A stretch of DNA of 56,915 bases. Origin: a virus. Lineage: Duplodnaviria > Caudoviricetes. The translations under genes were made by a program, and so were the position numbers. Location of the stretch: IMG/VR virus record IMGVR_UViG_3300007735_000758, positions 1-56,915 of that record; one strand, 5' to 3'. Positions 20,761 through 27,438 of this stretch are shown here, piece by piece; the first letter of the stretch is position 1; each line of letters begins with the position of its first letter. The notes below the pieces were generated by a model. The model was given only the letters and a program-made list of their open reading frames with translations. It was not told the origin of the DNA and did not search any database.

Positions 20761-21024
20761 CGCCGCCGCCTCAGGGCTGATAAACGTAAGCCGACCATCA
20801 CGAAATAGCCTGGAGAGACAACCAGGCGACAGCACGCCAAACGGACAGTTTGTGATGCTGACTGAGTCAGGAAAAACCTTGCAGCCGCTTTAGGGCAGAT
20901 AAACGTAAGACGAGGTTGTTCGATGTTGACGGTCAGCGGCATGGGCGGATGTTCCCCTATAACGTGCCGATGTGTCTTAGCATATAATCTCGCCGCCGCC
21001 TCAGGGCTGATAAACGTAAGCCGA
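20761..21024 (+). repeat. Module A, 34 nt x3 (20761-20794, 20880-20913, 20991-21024)
   Basis: CGCCGCCGCCTCAGGGCTGATAAACGTAAGCCGA; copies 1 and 3 are identical, copy 2 matches at 28/34. Confidence 0.95.
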
Positions 21025-21179
21025 GCTTACAAGCTAAGATTCTCTCAGCCAACTACCAGTTAACGGAGTAAGTCACTAGGTAGACGTTGATCGTATCCAA
21101 TAGGAAACCCTCACGCGCAAGTAACAACGTGACGTTAAAGCCATAGCCTATGGCTTGTTGAGCAATAAATGCACGCGTT

Positions 21180-21484
21180 GCCGAAATAACAGTAACCATA
21201 ACGGTGAATACATAGTAGGCGCATAAGCATAGCATTTAGCGGAGAAACACGCACCTACGGGAGCATCCGTCTAACGCATAATTGAACACTATAGGCACAC
21301 TGGTACTAACGTGTAAGTGATCCGGTCACTTACAGTCATATCATGTTGGCGCGTGGTAAAGGTAAGCGCCAAACAACGCAGAAGCGATAGCAAGTGGAGC
21401 GGGACAGGCGCGCTGATATATGGCACTCCGTCAGTAAATCAGAGCCGAAATAACAGTAACCCTAGCGGTGAATATACAGTAGGC
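21180..21484 (+). repeat. Module B, 41 nt x2 (21180-21220, 21444-21484)
   Basis: GCCGAAATAACAGTAACC-n5-GGTGAATAYAYAGTAGGC; 37/41 identical. Confidence 0.95.
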
Positions 21485-21670
21485 CAGAATTGAATAGGAA
21501 CTATATATTAGATTAAACGCGAATAAGTTAAGTAGCGAGATAGTAGAAAAAGCCAAATCTATAATGGGTCCGGTGCAAACTGGACCCATTTACCATTTAG
21601 CAACTAAATAAAGCCACATTCTGACAAGTGTGGCTCTATGTAGTTTCTAAACTACCAACAGGAGACAATT

Positions 21671-22348
21671 ATGACAACATACCACATCACGATGAAATCA
21701 CAGAACGGTAAAACCGGACCGATTCCGGTTACCACTACTAGTAAAGAAACTTGTTTCACTGGTTGCGGGCAGTATGAGAACTGCTACGCGAAACAGGGGC
21801 CTCTGGCGCTCCACTGGAACAAAGTCTCTGACGGGTCGCGCGGAATGACCCTGGCGCAGTTCTGCGCCGCTATCGAATCGCTTCCCGAGGGTACGCTCTG
21901 GAGACACAATCAAGCCGGGGATCTCCCCGGCGCTGATGGTAACATCGACCGCCGCGCATTGACAGATATCGTGATCGCCAACCTCAACAAACGTGGGTTC
22001 ACCTACACCCACAAGCCCATGACGCAGGAGAACGCCGGGATCGTGAAGAACGCTAACGCGCTTGGGTTCACCGTGAACTTGAGCGCCGATACCGTGGCGC
22101 AAGCTGACGAGTATGTATCGCTGGGCGTTGCTCCGGTAGTCCTCACAGTGCCGGAAGATACCCGCGCCAACTTCACCACTCCAGCGGGGAATAAAGTCGT
22201 AATCTGCCCCGCCGAAACCAAGGGCGTGACCTGCGCCGATTGCAAGCTTTGCGCGTGGTCGGGCCGGAAGGCTATCATCGCTTTCCCCGCTCACGGATCG
22301 AAGAAGAAGGCCGTCACCGCCGACAAGGTGTTTAACATCATCGCATAA
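21671..22348 (+). CDS. Gp88-like Cys-cluster phage protein
   Basis: NGKTGPIP, TCxxxCxxxxxCYA, RHNQAGDL, FTYTH and C-terminal CP....TCADCKLC; SD AGGAG. Confidence 0.65.
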   Translation: MTTYHITMKSQNGKTGPIPVTTTSKETCFTGCGQYENCYAKQGPLALHWNKVSDGSRGMTLAQFCAAIESLPEGTLWRHNQAGDLPGADGNIDRRALTDIVIANLNKRGFTYTHKPMTQENAGIVKNANALGFTVNLSADTVAQADEYVSLGVAPVVLTVPEDTRANFTTPAGNKVVICPAETKGVTCADCKLCAWSGRKAIIAFPAHGSKKKAVTADKVFNIIA

Positions 22349-22401
22349 GGGCTGACAACAGCCCCAAGTGGTATCAACAAAGGGTAGCTACGGCTACCCT
22401 T
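22349..22401 (+). promoter_or_regulatory. Tandem hairpins upstream of csx16
   Basis: GGGCTG-ACAA-CAGCCC and AAGGGTAGC-TACG-GCTACCCTT (cUNCGg loop); no U tract. Confidence 0.55.
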
Positions 22402-22433
22402 GATTGGTGACACTTCACCTATTGGAGAAAGTT

Positions 22434-22757
22434 ATGTATATCATCATTTCGCGGCACCCTGCCGCTATCGATTTCATCCGCGCCAACGATGCGCGGTTTT
22501 TGACGGCGCCCGTCATCACGGGCAACGCCACGCCCGAAGATGTTCGGGGCAAGGTGGTAGCGGGTAACATCCCGCTATCCCTCGCCGCACTAGCAGACGA
22601 GGTCGTCGCCGTGGAGTTCTCCGGCGCACCGCCTCGCGGCGCGGAGTACACCGCCGCCGACATGGTCGCCGCTGGTGCGCGTCTGGAAGCGTATGTGGTC
22701 AAGCGCAGTATTGCGTTTGACTACTGCGTCACGCACTCGCGAGCTGACGCATTTTAG
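22434..22757 (+). CDS. csx16: Csx16 (Cas_VVA1548)-family protein; candidate cA4 ring nuclease / anti-type III CRISPR
   Basis: ISRHPAAIDF...VVAGNIPLSLAA...RGAEYTAADMVAAGARLEAYVV matches the recalled Csx16 pattern SRHPGA...VIGTLP.HLAA...RG.EL...GARL..Y.V; SD GGAG. Confidence 0.75.
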   Translation: MYIIISRHPAAIDFIRANDARFLTAPVITGNATPEDVRGKVVAGNIPLSLAALADEVVAVEFSGAPPRGAEYTAADMVAAGARLEAYVVKRSIAFDYCVTHSRADAF

Positions 22758-22820
22758 TCGAAACACGGGTATAACCCGTGTCTGCGGGAATTAGCCTACC
22801 CGCACTGAAGAGACAGGCTA
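22757..22820 (+). ncRNA. Type II hammerhead ribozyme with 3' pseudoknot
   Basis: GUC-GAAA, stem III CACGGG/CCCGUG, UC cleavage site, stem I UGCGGG/CCCGCA, CUGAAGA-GAC. Loop I UAGCCU pairs with downstream AGGCUA. Confidence 0.9.
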
Positions 22821-22834
22821 GGAGGATTGATTGT

Positions 22835-23089
22835 ATGTTGAATAGAAAGACCGTACGCGCCGCCAGGGTGCGGTTTGTTGAGGCGCTGTACAAGCGCCAC
22901 GCTGTTTCTGGGCTCCGTCAGGGCTACGATATCGCCCTGACTATTAGCATGAGAACAGGCGTCCCCGTGGCCGCTATCGTGGCTACCAAGGGTGAAGATA
23001 GCCTGACGTGGGGGTCATCCAGGATCAAACGCCACAAGGCGTGGAAATCGCTATTGCTGGAAGCAGACTTATTACTGGAGGTGGACTAA
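22835..23089 (+). CDS. Hypothetical basic protein
   Basis: SD GGAGG at 22821-22825, ATG at 22835. Confidence 0.65.
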   Translation: MLNRKTVRAARVRFVEALYKRHAVSGLRQGYDIALTISMRTGVPVAAIVATKGEDSLTWGSSRIKRHKAWKSLLLEADLLLEVD

Positions 23090-23172
23090 TGGATTGGTCC
23101 GACATCCTCGACGGCTTCGCCTTCATGGGCGTAGCCGCTATCCTTTTGGTGATCTACATCACCATTTACTAA
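23089..23172 (+). CDS. 27-aa single-TM microprotein
   Basis: TAATG overlap, SD GGAGGT; MDWSDILDGFAFMGVAAILLVIYITIY. Confidence 0.6.
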   Translation: MDWSDILDGFAFMGVAAILLVIYITIY

Positions 23173-23227
23173 CAAATAACTGACCAGATTTGGGCAGTCT
23201 AAACACAAGACAACCAATAGGAGTAAT

Positions 23228-23413
23228 ATGAAATACGCAGAAGCAAAAAAGATCGTAAAAGAATTGGGCATGAAGTTGTCCCTGAATCGAGACTACAACG
23301 AGTATCGCGTTGCTCTACCAGGAGAAGATGCAGAGGCATCTGCCTACTACACAGAAGACCTTGAAGACGCCGTTGGGACAGCCAAGGCGATGACTCAGTG
23401 GGGGTTGCAGTAA
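23228..23413 (+). CDS. Small phage protein (EYRV...YYTEDLEDAVGTA type)
   Basis: 61 aa, SD AGGAG. Confidence 0.75.
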   Translation: MKYAEAKKIVKELGMKLSLNRDYNEYRVALPGEDAEASAYYTEDLEDAVGTAKAMTQWGLQ

Positions 23414-23694
23414 TGCTATTGACTACCAAATATCCCGGCACCTGCGGATCGTGCGGTGCCTCTATCAGCGCGGGGTCTCGCGCCAATTATCAGAAGTTGT
23501 TGGGCATCTACTGCCCGACCTGTCCTACGCCGAAGCGCAAGGGCAAGGCGACAGGCCAACGCCTTTACTCGCCCTATCGCCCTGCTGGCTACTACGCCAG
23601 CAAGGCTGACCCTCGCGGCCTGTACACTCCAGAAGGGAGATGTGTCGGGCGCATGGCGTGCGGCCACGAGGACTATCCCTGCTGCGGCTGCTAG
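23413..23694 (+). CDS. Small Cys-rich protein ending CGHEDYPCCGC
   Basis: KYPGTCGSCG...CPTC...CGHEDYPCCGC; TAATG coupling. Confidence 0.75.
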   Translation: MLLTTKYPGTCGSCGASISAGSRANYQKLLGIYCPTCPTPKRKGKATGQRLYSPYRPAGYYASKADPRGLYTPEGRCVGRMACGHEDYPCCGC

Positions 23695-23782
23695 CGTACT
23701 GACCAAGCACATTCTATGAGTGTGCTTGGATGAGTACACTGTACTCTGTCCAAATTTGGACAAACCAACTAGGAGAAAACCT

Positions 23783-24346
23783 ATGCTTACAAAGTTAAGC
23801 CTGATGATCCAAAAGATCGTATCGAAGGAAGCGTCCCGCTTCACCCTGAACGGGATCTTAATTACCAATAAAGAGACAGTGGCAACGGACAGCCACCGTC
23901 TAACACGGGTCAAGCACCTGTTCGTACAGGACAAGATGGACCGTCACGTAGTCCTGAAGGCGACAGATGCCATCTCGCTGTCTAAGATGGCAGGGAAGGA
24001 ACCCATCGAGGTTATGGGGGCCACTGCCGCAGACATATCCTTCCGCACCAGGGCGAGTAATACTACCTTCGAGCCGCTGGAAGGTAGCTTCCCGGATTAC
24101 CTGCGGGTTATCCCGTCTAAGACGGAAGACCATATCTGTATCATCTTCAACCCCAAGATGATGCAGGGTCTCATGGAGATCCACGGCGCTGCGGATGATT
24201 GCGTGCGGATGTATGTTCACCCGCGCAATCCCAACAACAACGCCATCATCCTCGAATCTGCGCGGGAAGATGGGCAGGACGTGCAGTCTCTCTTGATGCC
24301 CGTGCGAGACGCTGATGGGTACAAAGCCAGGAGGTACAGTGTCTAA
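23783..24346 (+). CDS. DNA polymerase III beta-clamp-like protein (partial clamp)
   Basis: SRFTLNGI, VATDSHRL, EGSFPDYLRVIP, FNPKMM, LLMPVR. Confidence 0.75.
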   Translation: MLTKLSLMIQKIVSKEASRFTLNGILITNKETVATDSHRLTRVKHLFVQDKMDRHVVLKATDAISLSKMAGKEPIEVMGATAADISFRTRASNTTFEPLEGSFPDYLRVIPSKTEDHICIIFNPKMMQGLMEIHGAADDCVRMYVHPRNPNNNAIILESAREDGQDVQSLLMPVRDADGYKARRYSV

Positions 24347-24358
24347 ATTTGGACACTT

Positions 24359-24742
24359 ATGAACACAAAAAAACTTACTTCGCATATCCTCTCGCTGCTA
24401 CTGCAACACACAATAGCAGTGACATGGAAAGATGGGACGAGTGGACGCGCCTGGGTAAAAACTAGGCGCGTTCGCTTGCGTCCTGTCAAGACACAGAAGA
24501 CCTACGCTGTTGCTCTTCACGAGATCGGTCACATCGTAGGCGACCAACCCAAGGCACGGCTAGACCGTGAAGCTGCGGCCTGGGAGTGGGCTATGCGTAA
24601 CGCTCTGAAGTGGACGCGCATAACCCATGCCACAATGCAACGCTGCCTCCAGTCTTATATGGATGCAGCCCAGCGCAAGCGGTACAAACCTTCGCCCCGT
24701 GCGAGCCGCTTGCTAGTGTCCAAATTTGGACAGGAGGATTAG
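24359..24742 (+). CDS. Small HExxH zincin-like metallopeptidase
   Basis: ALHEIGHIV...REAAAWEWA. Confidence 0.7.
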   Translation: MNTKKLTSHILSLLLQHTIAVTWKDGTSGRAWVKTRRVRLRPVKTQKTYAVALHEIGHIVGDQPKARLDREAAAWEWAMRNALKWTRITHATMQRCLQSYMDAAQRKRYKPSPRASRLLVSKFGQED

Positions 24743-24745
24743 TAC

Positions 24746-25018
24746 ATGACCCTACCAACCATCCATCTTAACGGCACGGACCCCCGTGACCTGCTGCAAG
24801 ACGTTCTGGACGCTTTAACAGCGATCAGAGAAGCCATCCGGGCGCTGGATAAAACAGCGCCCAACGGGCGAGACTACTACCCCCAGGGCGGCGATGCCCT
24901 GGGGCTGGCCTTCGGAGAGTATCTCCTACGGAGAGATAGCCTGTGCAATGTTCTGAAAGAACTTGAGCAGATTGCCGAATACTTGAGCGACAAAGCAGTA
25001 CAGCTCAATCGCCTTTAA
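24746..25018 (+). CDS. Hypothetical phage protein
   Basis: PTIHLNGT...PNGRDYYPQG; SD GGAGG. Confidence 0.8.
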   Translation: MTLPTIHLNGTDPRDLLQDVLDALTAIREAIRALDKTAPNGRDYYPQGGDALGLAFGEYLLRRDSLCNVLKELEQIAEYLSDKAVQLNRL

Positions 25019-25057
25019 CTAACCAACAAGTGTCCAAATTTGGACAAAGGAGAACAT

Positions 25058-25309
25058 ATGCTTACGCCAGAATTAATATACGAAGCCATGAGACATGGCT
25101 ATAGCTGGGGAATGTGCGAGGCCGACCTCGATCTTGAGCAAGGTAGATGGCGAGAGTGGGTGAACGGCAACTATTGCGGGTGGTTGCCCAAGGATGACGC
25201 CGAGCGCACAGCTTACGAAGACCTATTAGACCGCTGTGCAAAGACGGCGTACGAGATGATGCGCGATGCCTTCAAGGCCAACCAGGAGGCAAAGTGCGCT
25301 ACGCTTTGA
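25058..25309 (+). CDS. Hypothetical protein
   Basis: SD AAGGAG directly after a palindrome copy. Confidence 0.7.
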   Translation: MLTPELIYEAMRHGYSWGMCEADLDLEQGRWREWVNGNYCGWLPKDDAERTAYEDLLDRCAKTAYEMMRDAFKANQEAKCATL

Positions 25310-25497
25310 TGTCCCGGTCTAACGAAGGCGATGAATGGAATGACGCAGGGTACGCAAGTACCCTAAGCCAACTGAAAGAGTTGGCGCAGTGCTGGATCAT
25401 GCAGTACATGGCAGTAGACATGGAGAGAGGTCTGGTAGCAGACCTCAACGTAACTCCTCGATCCTGCACCCTTGCAAGCAAGTGGAGGAAAGCATGA
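25294..25497 (+). CDS. Hypothetical protein
   Basis: GTG start with SD AGGAGG. Confidence 0.55.
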   Translation: MRYALMSRSNEGDEWNDAGYASTLSQLKELAQCWIMQYMAVDMERGLVADLNVTPRSCTLASKWRKA

Positions 25498-25667
25498 GCC
25501 ACACAAGGCGGGAAGGCCCCCGCTGCTACAACCCTGCCTTAGTCCGCCTACCTGACGGTACCTACGGCACCTTCCCGTTCGGTCATCCTATGCCGGAAGG
25601 CGCTGTCGTTATCGAGCGCCGGAGTACAACAGGATGGCGCAAGGTGCGAGAGTGTGAGTATGCGTGA
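25494..25667 (+). CDS. Hypothetical protein (57 aa)
   Basis: SD GGAGG; ATGA overlap. Confidence 0.6.
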   Translation: MSHTRREGPRCYNPALVRLPDGTYGTFPFGHPMPEGAVVIERRSTTGWRKVRECEYA

Positions 25668-25767
25668 GCGTATAAACCAAATCCTCGACACCGTTACACA
25701 CTTCTGCTTCGCGTATTTGCCGTACATCGTAATCCTGGGTGCGGCATTCTATTTCTTCAGCCGATAG
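25660..25767 (+). CDS. 35-aa single-TM microprotein
   Basis: MRERINQILDTVTHFCFAYLPYIVILGAAFYFFSR; stop codon abuts the palindrome at 25768. Confidence 0.5.
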   Translation: MRERINQILDTVTHFCFAYLPYIVILGAAFYFFSR

Positions 25768-25792
25768 TGTCCAAATTTGGACAGGAGATACT

Positions 25793-26107
25793 ATGCAAGA
25801 TTTCACATTAGGAACGTGCCAAGCCATGACCTTTGAGGAGTGGGCGCTCAGCCAACTGCTCATGATATGCAGACCCGATGGGTACCTCGATCAGACCAAG
25901 GATGGGATTCATTCCACCTACCTCGTCGAGAAAGTTCGCGCCCTAGTACTGGCGCTGGACCACGGCGACGAACTCCAGTACCGACTGGATGTTGCCCAGC
26001 TTGACCAAGACGAGCAGGAGATCCGGCACCTGCTCGAAGTTATGAGGTCGCGAGATCTCGATGGCGCAGGCTTCTCGCCGTACGTTGGAGGGCAAACGAT
26101 CCAATGA
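25793..26107 (+). CDS. Hypothetical protein
   Basis: SD AGGAG overlapping the palindrome end. Confidence 0.7.
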   Translation: MQDFTLGTCQAMTFEEWALSQLLMICRPDGYLDQTKDGIHSTYLVEKVRALVLALDHGDELQYRLDVAQLDQDEQEIRHLLEVMRSRDLDGAGFSPYVGGQTIQ

Positions 26108-26202
26108 CAGTTAAAGAAATCATCGAACTTATTCTCATCGCACCACTGCTCGTGGGAATGTACTTCATTGCGTGGAGGGCGTGGAGGAATCTAGATCTAT
26201 GA
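26104..26202 (+). CDS. 32-aa single-TM microprotein
   Basis: ATGA overlap; MTVKEIIELILIAPLLVGMYFIAWRAWRNLDL. Confidence 0.55.
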   Translation: MTVKEIIELILIAPLLVGMYFIAWRAWRNLDL

Positions 26203-26324
26203 AGATTCTCAAGCTCATCGACGAGCTAAACGAAGCAATCATAGACGTTGTTGGCATGATCCTGTCAGGCGTGGCTGCGCTAGTATTATGCGCCATCATC
26301 TACTGGATCATTTCGCTACTGTAA
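26199..26324 (+). CDS. 41-aa single-TM microprotein
   Basis: ATGA overlap, SD GGAGG; hydrophobic C-terminal half. Confidence 0.6.
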   Translation: MKILKLIDELNEAIIDVVGMILSGVAALVLCAIIYWIISLL

Positions 26325-26331
26325 AACACTA

Positions 26332-26377
26332 TAGGGCAAGTACTGCACTGCACTTGCCCTAAACCATTTGATAGAAT
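26332..26377 (+). promoter_or_regulatory. Extended -10 promoter with overlapping 10-bp inverted repeat
   Basis: TAGGGCAAGT/ACTTGCCCTA; TG-A-TAGAAT at 26369-26377. Confidence 0.5.
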
Positions 26378-26409
26378 AAAGAAGTGCTGCCCAGCACAAC
26401 AGGAGCTAT

Positions 26410-27438
26410 ATGTTTTCAACAGAACTCGTCAAGGCGATTCAGATCGCCATCAATGCCCGTGTCCCGATGTGGCTTTGGGGACAGACCGGAGTCGGCAAGT
26501 CCTCCATTTGGAGGCAGGTCGCGCAGTCCCTTTGCAGGACGCACATCGACGTGCGCCCTACTCAGATGGACCCAGTAGACATGGGCATCCCGTACATCAA
26601 GGATGGCATCTGCTACCGTGCCATTCCCAACTGGTTGCCGAAGGATGGCAGCGCGTTGATGGTCATCGAGGAGCTGCCGGATGCACCCCCATCTGTACAG
26701 TGCGCTCTGTACCAGCTTGTCTTAGAGCGTGAGCTTGGAGACTACAAAGTACCTGACGGCGCGTACATCTGCGCTACAGGCAACCGCGCCCAGGACGGTG
26801 GCAACTACAACCAACCTCCTGTCCCTCTTCTCAATCGGTTCCTGCACATTACCTTGGAGTCTGGCTACGATAGCTGGCACGAGTGGGCAGCTAAGGGCAG
26901 CAGCGCCATGAAGGTGGACGTCATCCCGCCCAAGCCTATCTCCCCCAACATTCGGCCTGAGATCCGGGGCTTCTTCTCTTTCCGTAAAGATCTTCTGGTG
27001 CAACAGCCAAACAAGAGTGAGTTTGCATTCTGTACCCCCCGTTCTGTCGAGATGCTGTCTCGCATCATGGATCAAGAACCCAGCGCCGATGTCGCTGCGG
27101 AGCTGGTACACGGCTGTATCGGTAGAGGTACAGGCACAGAGTTCCTGGGCTTCCTCCGCACCTACAGGTCGCTGCCTACGTTGTCTGCTATCCAGGCAGA
27201 TCCTATGAACGTCCCGGTGCCTACTGACCCAAGCAGTTCGTACGCAACATCCATCTATCTGTCCAACTCGTGGGCAGCAAAGTACTCGCACTCTATCTGC
27301 TCGTACATGACCCGTCTCTCGCCCGAATACGGTTGCCTCTTCCTTAAAGATCTTTGCACCAAGGATCAAACGGCAATCGCTCACCCCAGCGTTCTGGCTA
27401 TGCACAACAAGCCCGAATACAACAACCTGATGTTCTAA
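26410..27438 (+). CDS. MoxR-like AAA+ ATPase
   Basis: Walker A GQTGVGKS, Walker B MVIEE, ATGNR, PLLNRF, TPRS. Confidence 0.9.
   Translation: MFSTELVKAIQIAINARVPMWLWGQTGVGKSSIWRQVAQSLCRTHIDVRPTQMDPVDMGIPYIKDGICYRAIPNWLPKDGSALMVIEELPDAPPSVQCALYQLVLERELGDYKVPDGAYICATGNRAQDGGNYNQPPVPLLNRFLHITLESGYDSWHEWAAKGSSAMKVDVIPPKPISPNIRPEIRGFFSFRKDLLVQQPNKSEFAFCTPRSVEMLSRIMDQEPSADVAAELVHGCIGRGTGTEFLGFLRTYRSLPTLSAIQADPMNVPVPTDPSSSYATSIYLSNSWAAKYSHSICSYMTRLSPEYGCLFLKDLCTKDQTAIAHPSVLAMHNKPEYNNLMF

Follow-up and report, generated by a model that had tools for sequence, protein, structure and literature searches.

The spacer between a csx16-family gene and the gene that follows it (gene Y) in the analysed viral DNA is filled by a sequence that is, with good probability, a true type II hammerhead ribozyme belonging to the pseudoknot subclass, which would be part of a plus-strand polycistronic mRNA and would, by self-cleavage, split this mRNA into a csx16 message and a downstream one. 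The DNA stretch, in the following termed the window, is a complete viral record of 56.9 kb with terminal repeats, and coordinates refer to it unless stated otherwise. What is established directly comprises the motif with its statistical backing, the way it is conserved and covaries in related viruses, and its placement between a stop codon and a Shine-Dalgarno (SD) sequence. An initial annotation had named the element a pseudoknotted type II hammerhead, an identity borne out by an Rfam match at threshold (RF02276), by the features of core and stems, and by compensatory changes in relatives.

Anatomy of the Hammerhead

Read directly from the sequence, core, stems, and pseudoknot occupy positions 22757–22820 of the + strand, on which all features described in this section are located. 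The Rfam model RF02276 (Hammerhead_II) matches 22756–22822 with model positions 1–66 of 66. The parts follow one another in the order stem II 3' strand, GAAA, stem III, cleavage site, stem I, CUGANGA core, and stem II 5' strand. The 3' strand of stem II, GUC (22757–22759), pairs with GAC (22812–22814), and its first base G22757 is at the same time the final base of the csx16 TAG, exactly where the initial annotation had let stem II begin. The adjoining core segment GAAA (22760–22763; G12, A13, A14, A15.1) is assigned by the sequence and by the RF02276 alignment. Stem III (22763–22781), which is recovered by sequence, fold, and descriptor, is a hairpin with the loop UAUAA, in which the pair A15.1-U16.1 (A22763-U22781) is joined by six G/C-rich pairs between CACGGG (22764–22769) and CCCGUG (22775–22780). 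Since a GUC triplet is present at 22780–22782, scission is predicted from the hammerhead consensus to take place after C22782, i.e., between C22782 and U22783. Stem I (22783–22804), evident from sequence and fold, consists of 6 bp (22783–22788 with 22799–22804) and a 10-nt loop (22789–22798). The second core segment, CUGAAGA (22805–22811; C3 to A9), is again given by sequence and RF02276 alignment, and the GAC strand of stem II leads directly into the 3' tail.

Within loop I, UAGCCU (22792–22797) is complementary to AGGCUA (22815–22820), which starts with the first nucleotide past stem II. The resulting pseudoknot comprises six Watson-Crick pairs, compared to 6 to 7 bp in stem III, 6 bp in stem I, and 3 bp in stem II. 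A possible seventh pair is of the G-U type and takes in the first G of the SD sequence of gene Y, GGAGG (22821–22825), which abuts the pseudoknot, an arrangement that recurs in relatives. The hammerhead thus fills the 77-nt spacer after the csx16 stop codon, with the SD followed by the ATG at 22835. Both the location between the csx16 stop codon (TAG, 22755–22757) and the next ribosome binding site and the termination of the pseudoknot exactly at that SD agree with the initial annotation, whose positions for GAAA, GUC, CUGAAGA, stems, and pseudoknot each proved correct.

All residues of the hammerhead core as defined in the available part of Perreault et al. 2011 (PMC3088659) are present, namely C3, U4, G5, A6, N7, G8, A9, G12, A13, A14, A15.1, U16.1 (U22781), and an H17 (C22782) that is not G. 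The pairs next to the core are the standard ones, i.e., U22783-A22804 (1.1–2.1), G22812-C22759 (10.1–11.1), and A22763-U22781 (15.1–16.1). [quoted passage not shown] With its 6 bp between loop I and the nucleotides directly 3' of stem II, it also belongs to the pseudoknot subclass, for which at least 4 bp are required.

Genomic Setting

The csx16-family gene (22434–22757, +) encodes 107 aa and matches the Csx16 profile PF09652 with an E-value of 1.5e-8 and 35.2 bits (cut-off 25) over profile positions 2–90 of 91. Its protein is without a PHROG family. All 116 database homologues originate from genomes or metagenomes; 114 of them carry PF09652, and only 2 bear the name Csx16. As stated in the accessible text of a preprint (bioRxiv 10.1101/2024.09.24.614671), Csx16 is a cA4 ring nuclease, with activity known for one tested Csx16, and was seen in just 2 of 28,114 phage genomes. 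Judged by its sequence, the 107-aa protein is a candidate cA4 ring nuclease that may act against type III CRISPR systems.

Gene Y (22835–23089, +; 84 aa) has no Pfam, PHROG, or Atlas assignment. Its 21 metagenomic homologues share an invariant central segment that gives the impression of a helix-turn-helix, and the AlphaFold model is all-helical at low confidence (mean pLDDT 57.9).

Structural genes of the window are located on the minus strand, and the ribozyme lies in a + strand replication/recombination module extending from ~21.6 to 35 kb, with genes for clamp-like, ATPase, exonuclease, Erf, resolvase, and dUTPase proteins. Just upstream of the first + strand gene, a G/C hairpin with a U-rich tail (21543–21598, +) gives a sub-threshold Rfam match to the sRNA BjrC68 (27.4 bits, gathering score 39). 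The window represents an aquatic phage; its nearest TerL matches are found in aquatic phages at 47–57% identity. Among the cultured phages with the nearest TerL, RF02276 is absent from all five (023Pt_psg01, HTVC027P, HTVC023P, DSL-LC04, and MinM2), and control genomes were likewise without a match.

Statistical Support and Detectability

The RF02276 score of 37.1 bits exceeds the gathering score of 37.0 by a margin of 0.1 bit. E-values amount to 3.1e-6 in a 301-nt scan, 5.7e-5 in a 5.6-kb scan, and 1.4e-7 in a genome search. Due to a speed-filter effect, the site is not reported in either of the whole-window Rfam scans (gathering cut-off; E ≤ 1), and it is recovered by Rfam scans of at most 5.6 kb and by the genome search. 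The element is thus a case of a real ribozyme overlooked by standard genome-scale Rfam scanning, which gives its annotation a value of its own. The Rfam scan of 20900–26500 returned no other ribozyme family.

A stem-aware descriptor applied to both strands of the window matched this hammerhead only, and no further ones. Among 300 dinucleotide-preserving shuffles, 25 contained some weak match (both stems at least 4 bp) and none a match with stem III of at least 6, stem I of at least 6, and stem II of at least 3 bp. The sequence-only core pattern is not significant by itself, with 3 matches compared to 2.0 expected.

Stems III and I are both part of the nested minimum free energy (MFE) fold (z = -3.15), a type of folding that cannot draw the pseudoknot. 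In place of the pseudoknot, the nested fold contains an 8-bp helix between 22752–22759 and 22816–22823, which was set aside because it is not conserved in relatives. When upstream sequence is included, csx16 coding nucleotides 22717–22723 pair with 22755–22761, a region comprising the stop codon, the stem II strand, and the start of GAAA. This 7-bp helix, specific to the window, could tie up the 5' side of the hammerhead until the passage of a ribosome. As a functional fold it was likewise set aside, the helix not being conserved in relatives.

Conservation at csx16 Loci of Related Viruses

The comparison covered 17 viral csx16 loci, 5 of them close (86–95% identity) and 12 distant (46–66%). 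Each of the five close relatives has a hammerhead that begins right behind the TAG of csx16; the sequences of stems I and III are changed, with pairing kept by compensatory exchanges. The copies of the relatives score 33.7–42 bits with RF02276. None of the 12 distant loci has a hammerhead within 1.2 kb, and a general association of csx16 with hammerheads is therefore rejected.

Locus L154 has csx16 bracketed by hammerheads, the additional copy upstream of the gene scoring 42 bits, and a complete 61-kb relative contains two hammerhead copies ~1.7 kb apart. The gene downstream of the same ribozyme varies among relatives, with three different genes occurring in this position, and metagenome contigs match the window only over 22755–22825, their flanks being unrelated. 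The ribozyme thus represents a conserved island at a mosaic junction.

In L150 and L153, the sequence 3' of the hammerhead starts with a start codon and first codons identical to those of the L154 csx16 and diverges thereafter; further on, only residues 1–22 of gene Y are matched. This junction has the look of a scar left by rearrangement between copies of the ribozyme. A dense cluster of hammerheads was seen in G005 (the record with L003), a 77-kb viral contig with seven RF02276 matches in ~10 kb (~57.4–67.8 kb) and scores of 30.5–46.7 bits, four of them above the cut-off.

The Wider Family of Viral Hammerheads

A blastn search with a 2.8-kb window query against 50,697 phage records gave a sole match, in Anoxybacillus phage A403 (counted once for its GenBank and RefSeq copies), which is confined to the 71 nt of the ribozyme. 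A pattern of the loop and tail motifs identified 13 viral contigs, all 13 of which have a complete 5' half, with ~8 different stem sequences among them.

For the wider family, a core-only pattern with one core spelling was used, which left stems, loop, and tail free and matched more than 132 stretches. Among the matches listed, 132 of 147 distinct core matches form both stems, and pairing per stem position is found in 127–144 of 147, compared to 60–80 with shuffled partners. Between three and five pair types occur at the stem positions of the family members listed, where pairing at positions 1–4 follows from how the set was selected. A helix of at least 5 bp between loop I and tail, formed by many different sequences, occurs in 66 of 137 among the matches listed, compared to ~18 expected with swapped tails. 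As stem pairing and loop I/tail complementarity both exceed the shuffles, fold and pseudoknot are supported by covariation.

The 132 type II hammerheads listed also reveal where such elements are placed. A start at most 15 nt from the end of an ORF (at least 40 codons) is observed for 112 of them, and in 33 of these 112 the final base of the stop codon also belongs to stem II, the situation found in the window. An SD sequence with a start codon follows within 50 nt downstream in 101 of the 132 listed, compared to 16 of 132 in the upstream control. With 112 of the 132 starting near an ORF end and 101 of the 132 followed by SD and start, the wedging of a hammerhead between stop codon and SD is the rule. 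Tight packing is thus quantified as the norm among the 132 listed, and it would fit a role in the punctuation of mRNAs.

Other Intercistronic Elements

The spacer upstream of csx16 folds far better than shuffled sequences (z = -5.8). The hairpin of the type cUACGg that the initial annotation had mentioned in this spacer is indeed present at 22380–22401 (+), with 9 bp and a UACG tetraloop, and is predicted by folding to be part of an extended helix (~22367–22414). It is kept in L151 and L153 with one base pair compensatorily exchanged and a UUCG loop. In case of L154, this slot upstream of csx16 is occupied by a hammerhead instead of the hairpin.

A perfect 16-nt palindrome, TGTCCAAATTTGGACA, was observed in 7 copies in the window (at most 1 mismatch) by pattern count, compared to 0 expected. 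The copies, 16 nt each, are located at 23747, 24340, 24717, 25031, 25768, 27758, and 30555. Five of them lie between the end of the upstream gene and the next SD or start, three directly after a TAG; the slot used is the stop-to-SD position, as for the hammerhead. As RNA the palindrome forms a 6-bp hairpin, and in relatives it occurs directly before or after the hammerhead. It could be an operator, or a site of RNA processing or binding.

Proposed Mechanism and Alternative Readings

We infer from the sequence that the element is transcribed, that it cleaves, and that cleavage affects the stability and translation of the messages. The ribozyme would be transcribed within the + strand polycistronic mRNA and would be complete once 22820 is transcribed, when loop I would pair with the tail (22815–22820). 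The pseudoknot would keep stems I and II parallel and docked, and the core would cut between C22782 and U22783, so that csx16 and the downstream sequence would come to lie on separate messages. Due to the type II topology, a closed hairpin would be located directly at each new end. The csx16 mRNA would have stem III at its 3' terminus, which would carry a 2',3'-cyclic phosphate. The downstream mRNA would begin at the base of stem I, its first nucleotide bearing a 5'-OH and its SD situated immediately 3' of the pseudoknot. The products should separate readily, since they would be held together only by the 3-bp stem II and tertiary contacts. Judging from bacterial mRNA decay, hairpin, 5'-OH, and cyclic-phosphate ends are expected to resist 3' exonucleases, tailing, and 5'-end-dependent RNases, and with such ends the two cistrons would therefore become independent in stability. 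The likely outcome would be two mRNAs, each with its own stability and translation, whose formation would need no host RNase. Ribosomes that finish csx16 or begin gene Y would sit across stem II and the pseudoknot, so a competition between translation and folding is probable. A decoupling of csx16 from the downstream message, as put forward in the initial annotation, would fit this anatomy and corresponds to the standard hypothesis published for the class (PMC3088659). The early timing that the initial annotation gave to the mRNA is an assumption.

A different and rather unlikely reading, although one compatible with self-cleavage, regards the ribozyme sequence mainly as a conserved gene-boundary linker at which homologous recombination swaps accessory or anti-defence cassettes, cleavage being secondary or tolerated. 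It can draw on the loss of homology to relatives exactly at the borders of the ribozyme (joints 22820→23746 and 22428→22839), on the contigs that share only 22755–22825, on the three different downstream genes, and on L154 with its copies on both sides of csx16; furthermore, the ribozyme is kept in relatives whose csx16 departs from that of the window in the last ~18 nt. However, mosaic borders at intergenic spacers are expected in any phage, and the contig joints derive from metagenome assemblies at 85% likeness. A catalytic core that is strictly kept, together with stems that evolve compensatorily, argues for selection on RNA function, not on DNA identity. Also doubtful, in our opinion, is a combined reading in which, in this phage group, hammerheads and the 16-nt palindromic hairpin are interchangeable intercistronic punctuation. 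They would cut the operon mRNA into hairpin-capped single-gene messages, and as conserved DNA they would also be a site of recombination by which phages exchange anti-defence cassettes, csx16 among them. If this were true, the bracketed csx16 of L154 would be excised as a message with 5'-OH and 2',3'-cyclic phosphate ends, which could be circularised.

All 13 invariant core positions are kept in the window and in its relatives, which would be needless if the element were a mere structured intercistronic RNA with an inactive core, acting by hairpin protection of the mRNA or by pseudoknot control of gene Y translation. Such a function is improbable, even though the pseudoknot abuts the SD, the seventh G-U pair would take in its first G, and the alternative helix specific to the window can mask the 5' strand; this helix is not conserved in relatives, and family members cleave when tested (PMC3088659, PMC8782182). 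A chance resemblance, or a pair of terminator or attenuator hairpins, is hardly credible. The Rfam score at threshold and the sequence-only core pattern (3 matches compared to 2.0 expected) would be in line with chance, but the structured match was found in 0 of 300 shuffles; no terminator-like site was called within 22757–22835, and neither hairpin is followed by a U-run. Conservation with covariation in many viral contigs effectively refutes both variants.

Comparison with Known Systems

In phage T7, intercistronic cuts by RNase III leave the early genes as hairpin-capped, separately stable mRNAs. These sites are a functional analogue of the self-cleaving hammerhead proposed here, except that a host enzyme is needed and the hairpin is the substrate, not the catalyst.

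The available text of Perreault et al. 2011 (PMC3088659) describes natural type II hammerheads with a pseudoknot between loop I and the 3' tail, which is needed for speed, so that the occurrence of such ribozymes in bacteria and phages, which the initial annotation had presented as prior knowledge, was indeed published in 2011. The class is reported there to be abundant near phage genes, with clusters flanking single genes or short blocks, and long phage transcripts were suggested to be cut into operon- or gene-length mRNAs. Cleavage of the class in vitro and in vivo is reported in PMC3088659 and PMC8782182. With RF02276 the window element shares topology, core, pseudoknot position, and the intergenic context in phages or prophages. 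There is no structural difference; the window copy scores at the gathering threshold and belongs to a loop/tail subgroup common to 13 viral contigs.

The hammerhead of phage A403 (NC_048701, 30287–30356, minus strand; L001, 2501–2570) is 81.9% identical to that of the window over 71 nt. Loop I and tail are identical, and both copies lie in operon sense and are closely followed by an SD and a start codon. In contrast, stems I and III are compensatorily changed in A403, N7 is U, the flanking genes are unrelated, and the copy is preceded by a 140-nt spacer, whereas that of the window is preceded by a stop codon. This complete type II hammerhead, the nearest copy in a cultured phage, is likewise unannotated, the A403 spacer being without an annotated feature. 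A -10-like hexamer seen by eye a few nt upstream may place the A403 copy at a transcript 5' end.

In case of the anti-restriction gene ardA, hammerheads flank the gene in Agrobacterium tumefaciens and one is located upstream of it in Legionella (PMC3088659, as far as available). Similar to csx16 in L154, ardA is a single anti-defence gene bracketed by ribozymes in the transcript of a mobile element. The two differ in that ardA acts against restriction and csx16 is a candidate anti-type-III-CRISPR ring nuclease, and the window has the downstream copy only.

For the haloviruses HF1 and HF2, the same source in its available part reports a hammerhead 13 nt before the helicase start codon and a mapped 5' end at most 3 nt from the cleavage site (PMC3088659). 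In the lytic HF1/HF2 as in the window, a ribozyme directly precedes a cistron of an operon related to replication. The HF1/HF2 copy, however, is a core variant of an archaeal virus at the head of a transcript, whereas that of the window lies between two cistrons. In Desulfovibrio vulgaris, three type II hammerheads are active in vivo as determined by cyPhyRNA-seq (PMC8782182, accessible part). Like that of the window, they belong to the RF02276 family and lie beside phage-like genes, and they show that such predictions usually cleave in cells; they are part of the chromosome of a bacterium, and the portion of their description examined mentions no anti-defence gene linked to them.

No report joining a hammerhead and Csx16 was found in the literature collection searched; in PMC10651486, which combines hammerhead, anti-CRISPR, and phage, the hammerhead is an engineered tool, judging from the available part. 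At the level of sequence, the window element shows every feature by which the family is recognised, and class, pseudoknot, and phage-operon context all go back to the 2011 publication. What is new is csx16 as the neighbour, a detail of modest added interest. With csx16 as the candidate, the locus represents the second example, after ardA, of a hammerhead adjoining or bracketing a phage anti-defence gene.
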